In this document: positions 2,973 through 59,180 of the stretch, piece by piece
How positions within the stretch are numbered: the first letter of the stretch is position 1
How the letters are laid out: each line of letters begins with the position of its first letter
Origin: a virus
IMG/VR virus record: IMGVR_UViG_3300034069_000432
Coordinates: 9,219 to 73,218 of that record
DNA: 64,000 bases
Reading direction: 5' to 3' (one strand)
The notes under the pieces: generated by a model
Database searches by the model: none
What the model was told of the DNA's origin: nothing
The model's input: the letters and a program-made list of their open reading frames with translations, nothing else
Position numbers and translations under genes: made by a program

Positions 2973-2990
2973 CGCCCACAGAAAAATAAT

Positions 2991-3031
2991 TAACCATCGG
3001 TGTTGACTTGGCAATAAACCGATGGTTAACT
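2991..3031 (+). promoter_or_regulatory. P_L promoter with two O_L operators
   Basis: TAACCATCGGTGT 2991-3003 and AAACCGATGGTTA 3016-3028; TTGACT-17-TTAACT (weak -10). Confidence 0.75.
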
Positions 3032-3079
3032 ACACCCATCGAAACGAATCAGCCCCTACCAAGGGCCTCCGGATCGAAC

Positions 3080-3088
3080 CGCTCTTTA
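3080..3088 (+). promoter_or_regulatory. boxA-like antitermination element
   Basis: CGCTCTTTA about 45 nt downstream of P_L, matches lambdoid/rrn boxA. Confidence 0.55.
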
Positions 3089-3351
3089 TCACCGCCAAGA
3101 TCCGCCCGAGGGAATCCCGGTTAGCCGGTACAAATGGGCGCAAAACATTCCCTCCCGAGCTGCGACGCGATGCGCAGTCACTGAAGCCCATGCATTCAGT
3201 GCGAACCAGGTGAGCACCTTCGAAGCGCCAGTAGCGCATAGAGGGCATCGGCAATGAGGGCCGAGTGCAGAAAGCCTGGGGAGAAACAGACTTCCTCGAT
3301 GACCTTGGCGACAGGGTCATCCGGAAAATCAACCTACGGAGAGACCCCGAA

Positions 3352-3483
3352 ATGACCACCAACAGAGTGCAGTGCCGCGATCAGGCCGAAGTGACCGAAG
3401 TCGCCGAGATGTGCACCGCTACCGGCTACCTCTACAGCGTCGATGAGCAACTGATGCTCACCTTCTGGAAAGCCCAACAGTAA
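3352..3483 (+). CDS. Small hypothetical protein (43 aa)
   Basis: MTTNRVQCRD..., GGAGAG RBS. Confidence 0.55.
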   Translation: MTTNRVQCRDQAEVTEVAEMCTATGYLYSVDEQLMLTFWKAQQ

Positions 3484-3500
3484 CCACCTGGAGAAGCGCC

Positions 3501-3581
3501 ATGAGCCAGAAACAAGAACCAGTATTCGTCGGCTACACCGAAGACGGCATGGCGATCTACCGGCTGCCGTTTCAGCTGTGA
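3501..3581 (+). CDS. Very small hypothetical protein (26 aa)
   Basis: MSQKQEPVFVGYTEDGMAIYRLPFQL, GGAG RBS; not in ORF track. Confidence 0.5.
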   Translation: MSQKQEPVFVGYTEDGMAIYRLPFQL

Positions 3582-8608: not shown

Positions 8609-9372
8609 TCGTCGTCAATTGCACCCAAGGCTCACCCGAGTGGCTTCAGGGCCGCGCCGGCGTGATCACCGCCAGCATGTTCAGCACCGCCCGCGCCAAG
8701 GTGAACGGGCTTAACGCACAGCAGAGGAAGTACGTAGACGCGATGCTTGCCGGAAAAGGCGAGACAAAGGCGATGGAGTTGGCCGGCTACAAGGCAGGGC
8801 CGAAAGCAGAGGTCGTGCAGCGGGCTTTAGATGGTGAAACCGTAGGCGAGCCATCAAATGCAGCGCTCACCTACGCATTCGAGCTGGCGGTGGAGCGTAT
8901 CGGCGGCACGCCACTGGATAACGGCTTTGAAACATGGCAGATGCGCCGAGGCCACGAGCTGGAGCCTGAGGCTCGCATGGAGCACGAGATCAAGACAGGC
9001 CTAATCGTCACTCAGGTGGGATTGGTTAAAACCGATGATGAGGCGTTCGGCGCGAGTGCCGATGGGTTCATCGGCGAGGACGGGGGCAGCGAATATAAGT
9101 GCTTTCTCGCACCCGACAAGTTGCGCGCCTTCCATATCGACAATGACGCCAGCGAGGTGATCGATCAAGTGCAGGGTTGCATGTGGATCACCGGGCGAAA
9201 GTGGTGGCACATCGGGATGTACTGCCCGCTTCTTAGGCCGGTCGGCAGGCAGCTCTGGCTGCAAGAGTTTAAGCGCGACGACGACTACATCGAAAAGCTT
9301 GAGCAGGACCTCTGGGAATTCAAGCTCCTGGTGGACGGCTACGAGCAAAAGCTCAGGAGTAAGGCAGCATGA
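8605..9372 (+). CDS. YqaJ/lambda-type exonuclease
   Basis: [44 protein letters not shown]. Confidence 0.9.
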
Positions 9373-54567: not shown

Positions 54568-55911
54568 TTACTCCTCGACAGGCGCGTCCGGGGCGCCGGT
54601 AACTGGTGGTTCTTCTGGATCTTCAGGCTCAACTTCGGTGCCGAATTCTTCGATTGCCGCCTCAAGCCCGGGGAGGACATTGCCCTCGACCAGAGTGGTG
54701 GTGGCGGCCTTGCTGAGCGCTTCTTGATTGAACAGCTGCGTATCCGAAAGAGTTTTGATCGTGTCGGCTACCGTCTTTCCGATGGTTGCTCGCTCTGCCG
54801 CTGTAGGCTGCCAGAGAATGCGCCAGTCGTAATAAATCTCAGTTGGCCGCGAGCCCAGCGCAGAACGGATCAGGCACTCATCGAAGATCGACAGCGTCTG
54901 GCTCAAGCCAAGCTTCTGCAGCGCACGCACGTGGTCGTAGTAGTTGCGCAGGTCAGACTCGCCGCTAGACGATAGGCCTGCCGGCGACTGTCCAAGGAAC
55001 CGCACAGCCGGCACATCAAACGCGCCGCAGACCTTCTGGTCGAACCGATCCATGATGTCTGGAAGGTTGCTGAATGAAGCGGACTTGGTCTCATAGTCCT
55101 CCTCCTTGTCCAGCATCAGCATTCCGTTGATGCCCTTACCCGTAGCAGCCAGGCTGAGACGCTGGAGAACGCGGTTGCGATACTCCTGATCGTCCATCTG
55201 CTCCATGAAGTTCGGGATCTTGACCACGTCGACCTTGGCCTCGAAAACCATACTGGCGACGTTTGCGTCTACAGACTCAGATTGCTTTACGGTGTTGGAT
55301 GCGGCCAGCAGGATTGAATCTCCCCAGCCGCGGTCCTGCACGCCCAGTAATTCGTTATCGGGATACGGCGCGCCGATGAACACGATGACGCGCGATGGGT
55401 GGATGCGTAGCTGAGGCGAGCCAGTGGGGATGTACCATTTCGGCTTGTCGAAGTATTCGGATTGCGGATCGGTTTCGGTGTCCCCCGGAGTCAGCTGGCG
55501 CTTGCTCATGACGTTCAGGTACTTGATACCGCCAGCCTGCACGCGCTCTGGATCCAGGCGCAGCGACAGGTCACGATCTCCAGTGCCGATAAAGATCGCA
55601 GCACCGCCAAACAGGCGCGCCTTGGTCATCGCCTCCTTGACTTTGTTCTGGACATTCAGGCGCTTCTCTTCGGCCTCGATAGCCTGTATCTGCTTGCTGT
55701 CCGCCTGCCATGCGCGCCACTCGCGCGTCGCGTCAAACGGCAGAATCTCGACACCCTTGCGCGCCATCCACGACCCACGATAGGCGTTGACCAACTCCTG
55801 ATCCGTGATGAACGGCATATCGAACTGGTTGTGGCTCGCCTTGTCCCGGCCAGTGCCAAGGTTGGCAACCAGGTTGACCAGCTTGTCGTTCAGGTAGCGG
55901 ACTACGCCCAT
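54568..55911 (-). CDS. Portal protein (DUF1073 family)
   Basis: AYRGSWMARKGVEILPFDATREW, ARLFGGAAI, GQSPAGL, DLRNYYD; follows terL. Confidence 0.9.
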   Translation of the reverse strand: MGVVRYLNDKLVNLVANLGTGRDKASHNQFDMPFITDQELVNAYRGSWMARKGVEILPFDATREWRAWQADSKQIQAIEAEEKRLNVQNKVKEAMTKARLFGGAAIFIGTGDRDLSLRLDPERVQAGGIKYLNVMSKRQLTPGDTETDPQSEYFDKPKWYIPTGSPQLRIHPSRVIVFIGAPYPDNELLGVQDRGWGDSILLAASNTVKQSESVDANVASMVFEAKVDVVKIPNFMEQMDDQEYRNRVLQRLSLAATGKGINGMLMLDKEEDYETKSASFSNLPDIMDRFDQKVCGAFDVPAVRFLGQSPAGLSSSGESDLRNYYDHVRALQKLGLSQTLSIFDECLIRSALGSRPTEIYYDWRILWQPTAAERATIGKTVADTIKTLSDTQLFNQEALSKAATTTLVEGNVLPGLEAAIEEFGTEVEPEDPEEPPVTGAPDAPVEE

Positions 55912-58241
55912 TAGGAAACGCCTGCGAGTGAGTATTTGCGCCGCTTCTTGGCGACAGCGAAGTATCGAAATGCGTCGGCGGCGTGCGAGCAGTTATGCAC
56001 GACAGCGCCGTTTGCCAGAGTAAAGTGCTCTACTCCCGGCACTGTCAAGCAGTATACATCCTCAACCACCGATAGTCTTGTCACGCTTTGCACTTCGATA
56101 TGCGGAAGCTTTGCAATTTGCGTGGCAAAACCGTTGCTGGTGGCCATTGTTTCGAACAAGAGCTTCGTATTCGTTCTTGCACCAGTCGCATTTTTTGAGC
56201 TCTCGCTTCCACTTTGTCCAGCCTTGAGAGGTGATAGCGTGCTGCCTATGCCACTCTCTGCCAGCAGGCGAAGCATGCCAGTCGGCAGCAGCTTTTTTTG
56301 CATCATCGCTAAACCAGCCCTTGCCAGCTCGCATAGATTTGACTTTATCAGAAAAACCTTTACCCAAATGCTCAGACGCTGGCAAGCACTCAAGATTGCC
56401 GAGCGAGTTGTTGGTTTTTTCTTCGTCGATGTGGTGTATGTGGCATCCTTCAGGGATTTCGCCAAAGGCGTCGCGCCAAACTGCTCGATGAAGTCTTTCT
56501 CCGCCAGCAGCAAAGTATCGCTCACTCGGGTATATCCGGTAGAGCTTTCCGAGAAAGTACTGGGTTGCTGGGTCAAGCCTGACAGGATCTTGAAACCCTT
56601 CTCTAGGCTTTCTGCGGATTTCCACCCGTTCGCCGTCAAGAATTTGTGCTCCGGCGTACATCTCACTGTACTTCCGTTGGCAAATAGGACCTCCACAAGT
56701 AGGGCATCCTGCTTTGTTTTCCTCGGGTTTTGATACTTCTTCCATCCGCATAGCGTCCACACCTCTCCAGTTTTTGGTAGGTCAACTATACGTTGCATTC
56801 CGTTACGCGTCAGCAGCCGTGTATCGGACGTGAAGCACCAATCGTGGAGAGGCTTATCTTTCCAGCACCCTCTTTTGTCGTCCCACTCTTTCCGATAGCT
56901 CTCCAGCGCCTTGACACCCTGCTCCGTCTTGGCGTCGTCGAACCAGCAGTGCTGAAGTATCTCACGCACAGCTTCGATACCGTCATCGATCCCAAGCTTT
57001 GGCACGACGGTGAACTTCAGCGAGTACTTCTTGCCGTCGATTTCGTAGCCTTCACGCGCAATCTCACGGCGCGTCTTACCGTCGCTGCCAAACTCCCGGT
57101 TATCGATGTCATGCGGGCCCCAGTGCTCGCTGTAGGTGTACCCCCGGTCCTTGATTACTTTCATGTAGTGCCGCAGGCCTTCGCCTGAGTTCTCGTAGAA
57201 GTCGATGACGTGATATTCTTCACCTACCTGGCGCACGAACCAGATCGCAGTCGAGTCGCCAACGCCGATGTCCCAGATCGTGAACACGGGCTGATGCGAG
57301 TTATCCGGCAGCTTGGTTATGCGCTTCTGCTCGTAAATCTTGGCGAACTGGGTCGCGTAGTACGCCCCCTCGACCGACTGCTGGAACGCCTCAGCCGGAA
57401 TCGAGGGGTACTCACGCTTCATGTCGTCGCCAAGCGTCTTCTCCTTGGACCAGTACCAGGCGCGCTGCTCGGGAGTGGTGACCACTCCGTGCTTCTGCTC
57501 AAGCTGGGTGAAGTAGTCCGTCAGCCGCTGCGGCAGCTCAGCCAGCACAGGCTCGGCGTAACCTGCATTGCGCCACCAGGAGAAGAAAAAGAATTTCCAG
57601 TCCAGACGACCCAGCGGCCGGCCGGCTATCTGGTGCTTTTCGGCGCTGTCCGAGTAGTCGAAGAAATACCCAGCGCGCCCCTCGGCCGTCGACTCGATCG
57701 TGATGAAGCAATCGGCCGCCACCGCCTCGAACGCGCCGGTAACGATCTCCCGCGCCTTGTGCGGATACTTTGCGCAGATCTTCCCGAACTCTGAAACGTG
57801 CAGGTAGCGCAGGGTACCGCCCCGGAACGATGTCGAGACGTACAGCGACCCGCCCTTGCTGAAAACCAGCTCGCCGGCACTGTCGTTGCGCGCTGGGTTG
57901 GCTTGCTTGATTTCGTCAGGGAGATTGTCGTATGCGAACTTAACTTTCTCGCGGAACAGCCTGTGAGCGTCAGGCAGTGTATGCGCGATTAGTGCGCACT
58001 TTGCTGATTCGAATAGCGCTGCGTCTAGTTGAATAATGCATTGTTCGGTAGTGAAGCCAAGTTGTCGGGCTTTGAGGATTATGTTTCGGTTGTGCATGCC
58101 GTTGTAATAATCAAGTTGCTCCTGCGTCATCTTGAATCTTACTTTCTTCCCGGCCTTGTCTGTAATTACATACAAGTTTTGCAGGCGCCATAACTTCTGA
58201 CGCAATAGAGCCAACCACTCAGGCTTCACTTGATAACTCAT
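55911..58241 (-). CDS. terL: Terminase large subunit precursor containing an intein
   Basis: IILKARQLGFTT, LHVSEFG, ESTAEG, WDIG, HDW|...|CSHAADAFRY. Confidence 0.95.
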   Translation of the reverse strand: MSYQVKPEWLALLRQKLWRLQNLYVITDKAGKKVRFKMTQEQLDYYNGMHNRNIILKARQLGFTTEQCIIQLDAALFESAKCALIAHTLPDAHRLFREKVKFAYDNLPDEIKQANPARNDSAGELVFSKGGSLYVSTSFRGGTLRYLHVSEFGKICAKYPHKAREIVTGAFEAVAADCFITIESTAEGRAGYFFDYSDSAEKHQIAGRPLGRLDWKFFFFSWWRNAGYAEPVLAELPQRLTDYFTQLEQKHGVVTTPEQRAWYWSKEKTLGDDMKREYPSIPAEAFQQSVEGAYYATQFAKIYEQKRITKLPDNSHQPVFTIWDIGVGDSTAIWFVRQVGEEYHVIDFYENSGEGLRHYMKVIKDRGYTYSEHWGPHDIDNREFGSDGKTRREIAREGYEIDGKKYSLKFTVVPKLGIDDGIEAVREILQHCWFDDAKTEQGVKALESYRKEWDDKRGCWKDKPLHDWCFTSDTRLLTRNGMQRIVDLPKTGEVWTLCGWKKYQNPRKTKQDALLVEVLFANGSTVRCTPEHKFLTANGWKSAESLEKGFKILSGLTQQPSTFSESSTGYTRVSDTLLLAEKDFIEQFGATPLAKSLKDATYTTSTKKKPTTRSAILSACQRLSIWVKVFLIKSNLCELARAGLAMMQKKLLPTGMLRLLAESGIGSTLSPLKAGQSGSESSKNATGARTNTKLLFETMATSNGFATQIAKLPHIEVQSVTRLSVVEDVYCLTVPGVEHFTLANGAVVHNCSHAADAFRYFAVAKKRRKYSLAGVS
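55992..56837 (-). mobile_element. Intein (282 aa) in TerL nuclease motif
   Basis: C1 CFTSDTRLLT, block B TPEHKF, block F VYCLTV, block G VVHN, +1 Cys. Confidence 0.95.
56062..56760 (-). CDS. HNH endonuclease nested in the -1 frame of the intein
   Basis: LHRAVW...IPEGCHIHHIDEEKTNNSLGNLECL...H; C-terminal CDWC...FCHANC. Confidence 0.88.
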   Translation of the reverse strand: MDAMRMEEVSKPEENKAGCPTCGGPICQRKYSEMYAGAQILDGERVEIRRKPREGFQDPVRLDPATQYFLGKLYRIYPSERYFAAGGERLHRAVWRDAFGEIPEGCHIHHIDEEKTNNSLGNLECLPASEHLGKGFSDKVKSMRAGKGWFSDDAKKAAADWHASPAGREWHRQHAITSQGWTKWKRELKKCDWCKNEYEALVRNNGHQQRFCHANCKASAYRSAKRDKTIGG

Positions 58242-58680
58242 CCATCAGCACACCCAAACTAGTTGGCGAGATACTGTGCTCAGTTTGAATCTTGTCGCCA
58301 TACTTCTTCGGCGCGATTTTGGATAGGTACCACTTACGTGCGTCGGCGCGGTTCTTGGCCCAGGTTACTGCGGCAGCGTCTATTGAACCATCAGGCTTCA
58401 TCGGCGGCACTTCGTCCAGGATATCGAAATACTGTTCGGCCAGCGCCTCAGTGGCGACCTCCTTGGACTTCGCGTATTGGGTGCGAAAACTCTCGTGCTT
58501 AGCCAGCCAGCGCAACACTGCGGTCTTCGCAGGCATGTCCTCAGCCTTGCACACGGTCGTCAGCGAATCGCCAGTAGCAAGCCGGTCACAGATCCGCTCA
58601 GCCAGTTCCTCGGTGTAGTCCGAAGGTCGGCCGTGAGGTTTCTTGGGAGTGGTAGGCGCTTTTTTTTTGATTACTGTCAT
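58219..58680 (-). CDS. terS: Terminase small subunit
   Basis: GRPSDYTEELAERICDRLATGDSL, RKWYLSKIAPKKYGD. Confidence 0.93.
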   Translation of the reverse strand: MTVIKKKAPTTPKKPHGRPSDYTEELAERICDRLATGDSLTTVCKAEDMPAKTAVLRWLAKHESFRTQYAKSKEVATEALAEQYFDILDEVPPMKPDGSIDAAAVTWAKNRADARKWYLSKIAPKKYGDKIQTEHSISPTSLGVLMDELSSEA

Positions 58681-59180
58681 GCCGCAACACCCAGATAACG
58701 GTTGATAGCCGCGAGATTTTCTTTCATCTCAGCAACAAGCGCCATTGCAGGATTAGCTCGATCTGGACGAGCTACTGCGAATGCCGTGTAGTCTCTGATG
58801 AATCGCTCTGCTGCGCGCTTGGCGTGGGTGTGCTCTGATTCCTGCCCGAATAGCAAATTGGTCAGGTTTTCGTGTCCGATGCGCCAGATTTCATTCTTTT
58901 CGAATTGATATGCCGCATGCTCACTTTCGAAAGAGCGAACCATAACGCGCACGACAGTTCCGCCTTCGTCCCAGATGGACTGGATGCGTTCAATTTTTGG
59001 AGAAATCATGTAGGAGGCTTTGGCGGCCTCACGCTCATGATGCATGACGCGATCGCCAGTACCCTTGCCGACGTAGAAAACCGAACCATCCCGGGAGTCA
59101 ACAAGGTGGTAGACGTAAAACCCGGTAGCAGGGAATTTTTCTCGAATCTCTTTGGGGAGGATGCGTCGAGTGAGTGCCAT
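58677..59180 (-). CDS. GIY-YIG (LEM-3-like) nuclease
   Basis: FYVYHLVD...FYVGKG...R, E...LTN. Confidence 0.85.
   Translation of the reverse strand: MALTRRILPKEIREKFPATGFYVYHLVDSRDGSVFYVGKGTGDRVMHHEREAAKASYMISPKIERIQSIWDEGGTVVRVMVRSFESEHAAYQFEKNEIWRIGHENLTNLLFGQESEHTHAKRAAERFIRDYTAFAVARPDRANPAMALVAEMKENLAAINRYLGVAA

Follow-up and report, generated by a model that had tools for sequence, protein, structure and literature searches.

A terL intein carrying an overprinted HNH endonuclease gene with candidate expression signals of its own

The 64,000-nucleotide stretch of viral DNA considered here (positions 9,219 to 73,218 of IMG/VR record IMGVR_UViG_3300034069_000432, hereafter the window) harbors on its minus strand a gene for the large terminase subunit (terL) that is interrupted by an intein, and the intein in turn contains an open reading frame (ORF) for an HNH endonuclease in another frame of the same strand. 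The terL intein with its HNH ORF is almost certainly a real, selected dual-coding element. It is best explained, with good confidence, as a mobile intein of the non-canonical type, in which the homing endonuclease (HEN) has a gene to itself, written over the intein in the +2 (= -1) frame, and is made from its own signals. A preliminary description of this DNA, made from the window's letters, had proposed a dual-coded element with splicing and nuclease functions on separate polypeptides; this proposal is now backed by more than 100 conserved loci, stop avoidance, wobble patterns, and a conserved ATG, Shine-Dalgarno motif and promoter. The out-of-frame HNH-in-intein architecture as such is not new: comparable layouts appeared in reports from 2012-2015 and 2025. 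What the present analysis appears to add is a large lineage absent from the papers found, together with a concrete candidate mechanism for expression of the nuclease.

The terL precursor is encoded by a 776-amino acid ORF, intein included (55911..58241, minus strand), which matches the PHROG family phrog_2, terminase large subunit, at 3e-34. Its insert, 282 amino acids long (55992..56837, minus), shows the anatomy of a class-1 intein, running from C1 to the terminal HN and followed by the +1 Cys (Pfam Intein_splicing 1.9e-13, 50.9 bits against a gathering cutoff of 35.8). C1, the block B motif T61xxH64, H281-N282, and the +1 Cys are all found in the window; C1, T61, and H64 are invariant in the relatives, and H281 and N282 are conserved. 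Canonical boundaries, C1 ... [HSA]N followed directly by [CST], were present in 79/79 analysed nested loci. An AlphaFold2 (AF2) model built with the alignment of the window's clade displays two confident lobes of the HINT fold, and the mini-intein matches gp41-1 (TMt 0.85-0.87), DnaB, and RecA with E-values down to 6e-7. The N-terminal splicing lobe (intein residues 1-92, blocks A and B; 56562..56837, minus) reaches a predicted local distance difference test score (pLDDT) of 97-98 over residues 1-80 and 88 over residues 81-90. The C-terminal lobe (residues 246-282, blocks F and G; 55992..56102, minus) scores 96-98 (block means for residues 251-282) and shows normal host wobble (entropy 1.5-1.6). 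Between them lies a stop-free host-frame linker (residues 93-245; 56103..56561, minus) that lacks protein-level constraint and has a pLDDT mostly of 34-48, rising to 68-70 at residues 211-230. The insert is thus assigned to the class-1 inteins with HINT fold, and splicing is predicted from its intact motifs and from terL being essential.

Once the intein is taken out, the window's TerL can be aligned end to end with the 494-amino acid TerL of Pseudomonas phage PS-1 at 81% identity, the figure also obtained for the N-extein. The intein is inserted between KPLHDW and CSHAADAF, where the intein-less PS-1 protein reads KPLHDWSSHGSDAF (KPLHDW-SSHGSDAF). All 79 nested loci appear to carry the insert in the same C-terminal TerL motif (HDW-x-SH-xx-D or equivalent), in four adjacent registers. 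Those of the window's clade are, with the insertion point marked by ^, HDW^CSH.., HDWS^SH.., HDWxSH^C/S.., and DWxSHx^C/S.., the +1 residue being Cys or Ser each time; these neighboring registers point to target-site drift or to repeated re-invasion of nearby positions.

The nested ORF (56062..56751, minus) encodes 229 amino acids plus a stop in frame +2 (= -1) of terL. Lying between blocks B and F, it leaves 86 nt of intein upstream of its start and 70 nt downstream of its end. The HNH frame runs for 239 codons without a stop, and there is no stop anywhere in the terL frame. The protein belongs to the Pfam family HNH_3 (PF13392; 1.4e-14, 53.9 bits against a cutoff of 24.8), does not match PF01844, and falls into phrog_15471, HNH endonuclease, at 4e-27. 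Across 68 HNH sequences 13 columns are invariant, including H88, H107, N119, H128, and the cysteines 188/191/209/213, and all these residues are present in the window; H104, H106, D109, N114, and N115 are at least 90% conserved. The AF2 model of the HNH-frame protein has a mean pLDDT of 85. Residues 31-72 are predicted to form beta strands (block-mean pLDDT 84-96), and these strands share their DNA with the N-terminal HINT lobe. Among known structures the model is closest to I-HmuI (1u3e) of Bacillus phage SPO1 (VIA-align Z 6.9, rmsd 2.6 A over 77 residues; next match Z 4.2). A profile search likewise ranked I-HmuI best (E 0.039), and Foldseek against the PDB yielded no significant match, 1u3e being the weak top match (E 0.15). 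Fold and the conserved His and Asn residues of the HNH (beta-beta-alpha-metal) motif agree in identifying the nested protein as a predicted HNH_3 / I-HmuI-like nuclease. The match takes in part of the N-terminal beta sheet plus the HNH core, whereas I-HmuI is encoded by a group I intron rather than an intein and shares only 21% sequence identity. The C-terminal DNA-binding modules differ as well, the nested HNH having a helical region and a CxxC...CxxxC zinc ribbon.

Most of what the preliminary description had seen in the window is borne out by these data. It had reported a 282-residue intein with complete splicing motifs inside the TerL sequence HDW/CSHAADAF, with which the Pfam match, the motif residues, and the comparison with PS-1 agree, and a central part without recognizable domain, which corresponds to the poorly modeled linker whose host frame is free of protein constraint. 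Its complete HNH in the -1 frame, lying wholly within the intein and equipped with a CxxC...CxxxC module, is confirmed by the HNH_3 match and the invariant zinc-ribbon cysteines, and its estimate of about 230 stop-free codons in both frames is close to the 239 codons measured for the HNH frame, the host frame being open throughout. The ORF had been placed at 56062..56760 with a GTG start; an ORF with an HNH_3 match is indeed located there, but the likely start is the ATG at 56751, which is conserved in the relatives.

The window stems from a plant metagenome assembly, and the preliminary description had named two compensating indel errors as a possible source of the arrangement. Logan contigs from two runs of the source sample, one of them possibly the window's own source, contain 0 substitutions and 0 indels across the stretch; the arrangement is not an error. 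Tblastn with the nested protein gave matches inside the annotated terL of four unrelated isolated phages, all in frame +2: Tetrasphaera phage TJE1, Clostridium phage phiCDHM19, Rhodobacteraceae phage LS06-2018-MD07, and Acinetobacter phage Highwayman (L002-L005), with the HNH stop 43-55 nt before the intein end. The GenBank records of these phages list only the long terL coding sequence and leave the nested HNH gene unannotated. A pattern search of IMG/VR retrieved 552 relatives, the best 80 of which were analysed. In 78/80 the nested layout occurs in a long ORF (650-780 amino acids where the contig is complete); of the other two, L056 has the HNH in phase +1 and one is free-standing. Stops in the HNH frame of homologues, which the preliminary description had named as a refuting outcome, do not refute the arrangement: 74/79 nested relatives keep the whole matched HNH stretch in one open frame.

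The layout is not confined to phage isolates and IMG/VR contigs. Among related loci in species-representative prokaryote genomes, 25/52 are nested, with phase +2 every time, the remainder being mostly free-standing genes. The nested loci of bacterial assemblies include Bacteroides, Patescibacteria, Chloroflexota, Corynebacterium, Planctomycetota, and Nitrospirota, and those of archaeal metagenome-assembled genomes (MAGs) comprise Thorarchaeota, Woesearchaeota, Thermoplasmatales, and Methanomethylophilaceae. None of the near-full-length relatives was found to carry this HNH family in frame; the sole candidates, L136, L137, L139, and L140, match only a short part of the core, within longer ORFs that do read it in frame. 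In the IMG/VR contig L056 (1398-3689) the HNH ORF (2989-3501) is in phase +1, the only such case among 106 nested loci; judged from its sequence, either alternative phase can be held open.

Both frames bear marks of selection, distributed unevenly along the intein. Host-frame stops over the HNH ORF number 0 in 79/79 loci, compared with a mean of 20 in the third frame. Synonymous shuffling of the HNH codons introduces a mean of 2.7 host-frame stops, and stop-free shuffles make up a median of 2% per locus (4.7% for the window), so that the stop avoidance proposed for examination by the preliminary description is evident. Per-position entropy was derived from codon alignments of 46 distinct sequences of the window's clade, with 44-59% HNH identity. 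The extein and intein blocks F/G exhibit normal host-frame wobble, with an entropy of about 1.5-1.7 at host position 3. Over intein residues 93-248 variability peaks at host position 2 (entropy 1.3-1.8), where the HNH codons have their wobble position. The pattern changes from host to HNH frame at intein residues about 92 and 249. As read from these alignments, residues 93-248 show protein-level purifying selection on the HNH frame only, the terL frame merely being held open. Different again is the stretch of intein residues 45-92, equivalent to HNH residues about 16-63 (56562..56705, minus), where all three codon positions are low in entropy and host wobble drops to 0.60-0.94; these roughly 48 codons appear to be constrained by both proteins. 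The overlap thus goes beyond a nuclease written over an unconstrained linker and also takes in these doubly constrained codons.

Upstream of and at the start of the HNH ORF the sequences share a series of putative expression signals embedded in splicing-domain codons. The start codon (intein nt 87-89; 56749..56751, minus) is ATG in 45/46 distinct clade sequences and sits at offset +86 from the intein start in 41 loci; reading back from the chosen start, the HNH frame in the 79 loci meets a stop after a median of 7 codons. At a distance of 9 nt upstream of the ATG lies a Shine-Dalgarno-like sequence, GGAGAGGT (56761..56768, minus), within the intein codons G-E-V. Most clade loci possess a GAGG or GGAGG core with 10-nt spacing, and the Glu25 codon is GAG in 36/41, against a background usage of 56%. 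Farther upstream, in block A codons, the window contains a candidate sigma70-type promoter (56785..56813, minus) made up of a -35 hexamer CTGACG (56808-56813), a 17-nt spacer, and a -10 hexamer TATAGT (56785-56790). Aligned with it, the clade has the consensus hexamers TTGACn (intein nt 25-30) and GATAAT (nt 48-53), again 17 nt apart. At least 5/6 matches in both hexamers were observed in 31/45 loci, while elsewhere in the same ORFs a single such match occurred in 94,293 positions (background 1e-5 per position). Synonymous codons that form the promoter are strongly preferred, namely TTG for Leu9 in 38/43 and ATA for Ile17 in 39/42, versus 16-20% usage in the exteins; wobble positions elsewhere in the clade alignments are near saturation. 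In the window this is the only promoter-like site in the 3 kb scanned, a yield at chance level when taken alone (1 found, 1.3 expected in shuffles). Since a single match in the window is no better than chance, the promoter claim rests on the comparative data.

The conserved promoter, Shine-Dalgarno motif, and ATG argue for independent expression of the nuclease instead of frameshifting, and the nuclease is probably made by internal initiation from its own promoter. The signals lean, a little beyond even odds, towards a wider proposition, that the HNH_3 intein lineage carries a full nuclease cassette (sigma70 promoter, Shine-Dalgarno, ATG) overprinted on splicing-domain codons, with about 250 nt put to up to three uses. 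If this is true, these 250 nt serve the HINT protein, the N-terminal DNA-binding sheet of the HNH, and transcription/translation signals together, and the homing nuclease could come from transcripts of the host polymerase, ahead of late terL expression or independently of it. The earlier suggestion that nuclease dose is uncoupled from terminase synthesis would be compatible with such an embedded promoter.

Two further features of this region were noted. Within the promoter spacer (56791-56807, minus; intein nt 31-47), whose consensus is CGTTACGGAACG..TC., wobble positions are also conserved, with CGT for Arg11 in 38/40 and GGA for Gly13 in 38/44. This exceeds the needs of a spacer and may reflect an operator, an RNA element, or another nucleotide-level function. 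A low-GC sister clade (L057-L084, 31-40% GC) has no Shine-Dalgarno motif and displays a conserved TAnnTTTG box about 40 nt upstream of the HNH ATG, which resembles the Bacteroidota -7 promoter element. This clade may have swapped in a Bacteroidota-type promoter box; the box overlaps block B codons, and its conservation may stem from the protein.

The following course of events is proposed for the element. The terL frame would be read straight through, the two HINT lobes (residues 1-92 and 246-282) would fold together, and the low-confidence linker of about 150 residues would loop out. Class-1 splicing by C1, T61xxH64, H281-N282, and the +1 Cys would then release a 494-amino acid TerL with its C-terminal HDW-x-SH-xx-D motif restored. 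Independently, the 229-amino acid I-HmuI-like HNH_3 nuclease would be made from the promoter (56813..56785), the Shine-Dalgarno motif (56768..56761), and the ATG (56751) inside the codons of the N-terminal splicing lobe. In a mixed infection, the nuclease is expected to cut or nick an intein-less terL near HDW^SSH, upon which recombinational repair would copy in the intein along with the HNH gene, a process denoted as homing.

Several observations weigh against this explanation. The window's own -35 hexamer matches in only 4/6 positions. Because the promoter and Shine-Dalgarno motifs coincide with codons for conserved intein residues (LT, GEV), the protein accounts for part of their conservation, and the codon-bias p-values take no account of phylogenetic non-independence (shared ancestry). 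Furthermore, the window contains a canonical slippery heptamer, G GGT TTC (56592-56598, minus), at which -1 reading leads into the HNH frame, so that a frameshift fusion is possible in the window's phage, and the free-standing relatives beside terminase genes would equally fit a role in packaging. The heptamer leads to the idea that ribosomes translating the terL/intein frame undergo a programmed -1 shift and so produce the HNH fused to the N-extein and N-intein, an idea that also accords with the -1 position of the HNH frame in 105/106 nested loci. Yet only 5/46 clade sequences have a canonical heptamer there, and only 5/79 loci have any canonical one near the ORF start, by which a conserved -1 frameshift site is rejected. 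The conserved ATG, Shine-Dalgarno motif, and promoter are located upstream of the heptamer, and the HNH-frame stop at a median of 7 codons before the ATG puts the conserved N-terminal 50 residues out of reach of a downstream shift; L056 and brucellaphage Tb, moreover, use the +1 phase. Frameshifting is accordingly held to be quite unlikely as the route to the nuclease.

A role as a terminase packaging cofactor, like that of HK97 gp74-type HNH proteins, kept by phage need, is similarly improbable. The idea was raised for brucellaphages (PMC4422536), and free-standing family members are found directly beside terS/terL in phages BP10, CL2, and Poludnitsa. Against it, the closest TerL relatives (PS-1 and others, 75-81% identity) have neither an intein at the site nor a match to the HNH family, and no free-standing HNH gene was detected in the annotated stretch around terS/terL of PS-1. 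The family is HNH_3 (PF13392) and not PF01844, which speaks against HK97 gp74-type membership, and its best structural match is the homing endonuclease I-HmuI; the GC content of the intein is unlike that of its flanks, and nested and free forms are interleaved in the tree, as would be expected of mobile genes. Least plausible by far, with hardly any weight left to it, is artefact or decay, in which two compensating indels, errors or real mutations, would have struck a once in-frame HNH intein and the host frame would be open by chance. In-frame HNH inteins are known in phages and the window is a metagenome assembly, but no indels are present in the two run assemblies, and the same phase with an open host frame recurs in more than 100 divergent loci; no in-frame member occurs among near-full-length relatives, the stop avoidance is statistically strong, and start codon and signals are conserved. 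Sequencing or assembly error is thereby rejected, on the Logan assemblies as well as on the layout of the relatives. The overprinted homing endonuclease gene with its own signals is preferred over all three, and the nested HNH very probably acts in homing, not packaging.

Distribution and phylogeny are in keeping with a mobile gene. The intein part of the query was covered by none of 650 phage records with a TerL homologue. In the closest TerL relatives, at 75-81% identity, the sequence continues through the insertion site without a break, and tblastn disclosed no match to the nested HNH family in them. GC content is about 50% in the intein and 56-63% in the flanking terL. Free-standing family members adjoin terminase genes in Acinetobacter phage BP10, Lactobacillus phage CL2, and Brevundimonas phage Poludnitsa. 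In an unrooted FastTree phylogeny of 120 HNH proteins, which does not fix the direction of change, the window's clade comprises 48 members, all of them nested (support 99). Nested and free forms are interleaved in the rest of the tree, with at least 3 state changes by well-supported branches and 10 by parsimony. The nested HNH of Highwayman (L005) is sister to the free-standing HNH of BP10 (L086; support 97), the BP10 copy being located just upstream of terS; this Acinetobacter pair is suited to studying gene movement between nested and free states. The tree would fit the published idea that free-standing endonuclease genes invade inteins.

The preliminary description could not say whether such an architecture had been published. 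It has, in the GenBank annotation of brucellaphage Tb, in a paper of 2015 (PMC4422536), and in a preprint of 2025 (bioRxiv 10.1101/2025.01.02.630785). For Brucella phage Tb (GenBank JN939331, ORF07/ORF08), terL is annotated with 'intein present' and a nested 'putative HNH endonuclease', and an intein-encoded HNH gene out of frame within terL was described for all brucellaphages (PMC4422536, 2015). Like the window, brucellaphages Tb/Pr (Perisivirus) have a terL intein enclosing a complete same-strand HNH ORF of about 228 amino acids that is read in a different frame and leaves terL open. Unlike the window's protein, the Tb HNH is a PF01844 member with an N-terminal zinc ribbon, and BLASTP aligns the two over only 25 residues around the HNH motif, so that membership in the same family is rejected. 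The Tb gene also differs in using phase +1 instead of +2, and its intein precedes the sole Terminase_6N match instead of occupying the C-terminal HDW site. The brucellaphage publication is without analysis of selection or expression signals.

Non-canonical inteins with out-of-frame HENs were surveyed in the 2025 preprint, which also covers antisense LAGLIDADG and VSR-like HENs, counts terL among four host proteins with such inteins, and proposes invasion by a free-standing homing endonuclease gene (bioRxiv 10.1101/2025.01.02.630785). The window's intein has the features of this type, namely a complete out-of-frame ORF on the same strand between blocks B and F, an open host frame, and no folded in-frame HEN domain. 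The preprint's inteins share with it frame 3 (= +2), a HEN ORF between the splicing blocks, and a host-frame stretch without recognizable fold. Their HENs, however, are endonuclease VII-like according to InterPro, versus Pfam HNH_3 / I-HmuI-like in the window. A common family with these actinophage HENs is not supported, as Pfam assigns the window's protein to HNH_3 only and tblastn matched no PhagesDB-type actinophage; with two family members as queries, it returned no actinophage except Tetrasphaera phage TJE1. The scope of the preprint is PhagesDB only, whereas the window's family extends to phages of many bacterial phyla and to archaeal MAGs, and its text makes no mention of start codons or frameshifting. 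Hidden out-of-frame HNH insertions of the ShiLan type were reported from phage DNA methylases; no ribosome-binding site was found, leaderless initiation was proposed, and the question of translation was left open (PMC11855218, 2025). There, too, the HNH ORF is out of frame in a host gene kept open, but the ShiLan element lacks an intein splicing domain, so that the insert stays in the host protein, and it is the window's clade that conserves a Shine-Dalgarno motif and a promoter. Fractured genes, in which a free-standing endonuclease gene lies between the halves of a split intein (Dassa et al. 2009, PMC2677866), likewise encode the homing endonuclease separately, at the place where inteins canonically take up a HEN. 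Their host gene is divided into two ORFs with trans splicing, whereas the window's host frame remains open through the nuclease gene and cis splicing is predicted. Neither the full-text searches nor the papers cited here yielded a description of the HNH_3 / I-HmuI-like terL family, of its spread among viruses of bacteria and archaea, of the codons constrained in both frames, or of the promoter/Shine-Dalgarno/ATG set within the intein.

Records of this family usually show a long terL ORF alone, with the consequence that a presumed active mobile-element gene is overlooked. The family supports the model of intein origin in which the splicing domain comes first and a free-standing endonuclease invades it. 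It further constitutes a large natural dataset of same-strand overprinting, in which the host frame needs only openness and the nuclease frame codes, and, with its roughly 48 codons that encode parts of two folded domains at once, it is useful for studies of overlapping-gene evolution. The embedded promoter, Shine-Dalgarno motif, and ATG offer a testable answer to the question, posed by the 2025 papers, of how hidden endonucleases are expressed. The practical value is modest and consists of a cis-splicing intein with a naturally long linker and a possible new site-specific HNH nuclease, both predicted.

Some observations concern other loci and the genes around terL. In Vibrio phages 1.238 and 1.245 the corresponding region is annotated as separate 'hedgehog/hint domain protein' pieces. 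The IMG/VR contigs L039 (533-3910) and L041 encode terL ORFs of 1126 amino acids; that of L039 has an in-frame LAGLIDADG match (residues 162-203) in addition to an out-of-frame HNH intein farther downstream, which suggests that the LAGLIDADG match belongs to an upstream canonical intein. The packaging module of the window is encoded on the minus strand and consists of terS (58219..58680), terL (55911..58241), and the portal gene (54568..55911). Directly upstream of terS, a 167-amino acid ORF (58677-59180, minus) encodes a protein with a GIY-YIG nuclease domain (Pfam LEM-3_GIY-YIG, 5.9e-15; PHROG family of unknown function), possibly a second nuclease of the homing type, standing free next to the packaging genes.

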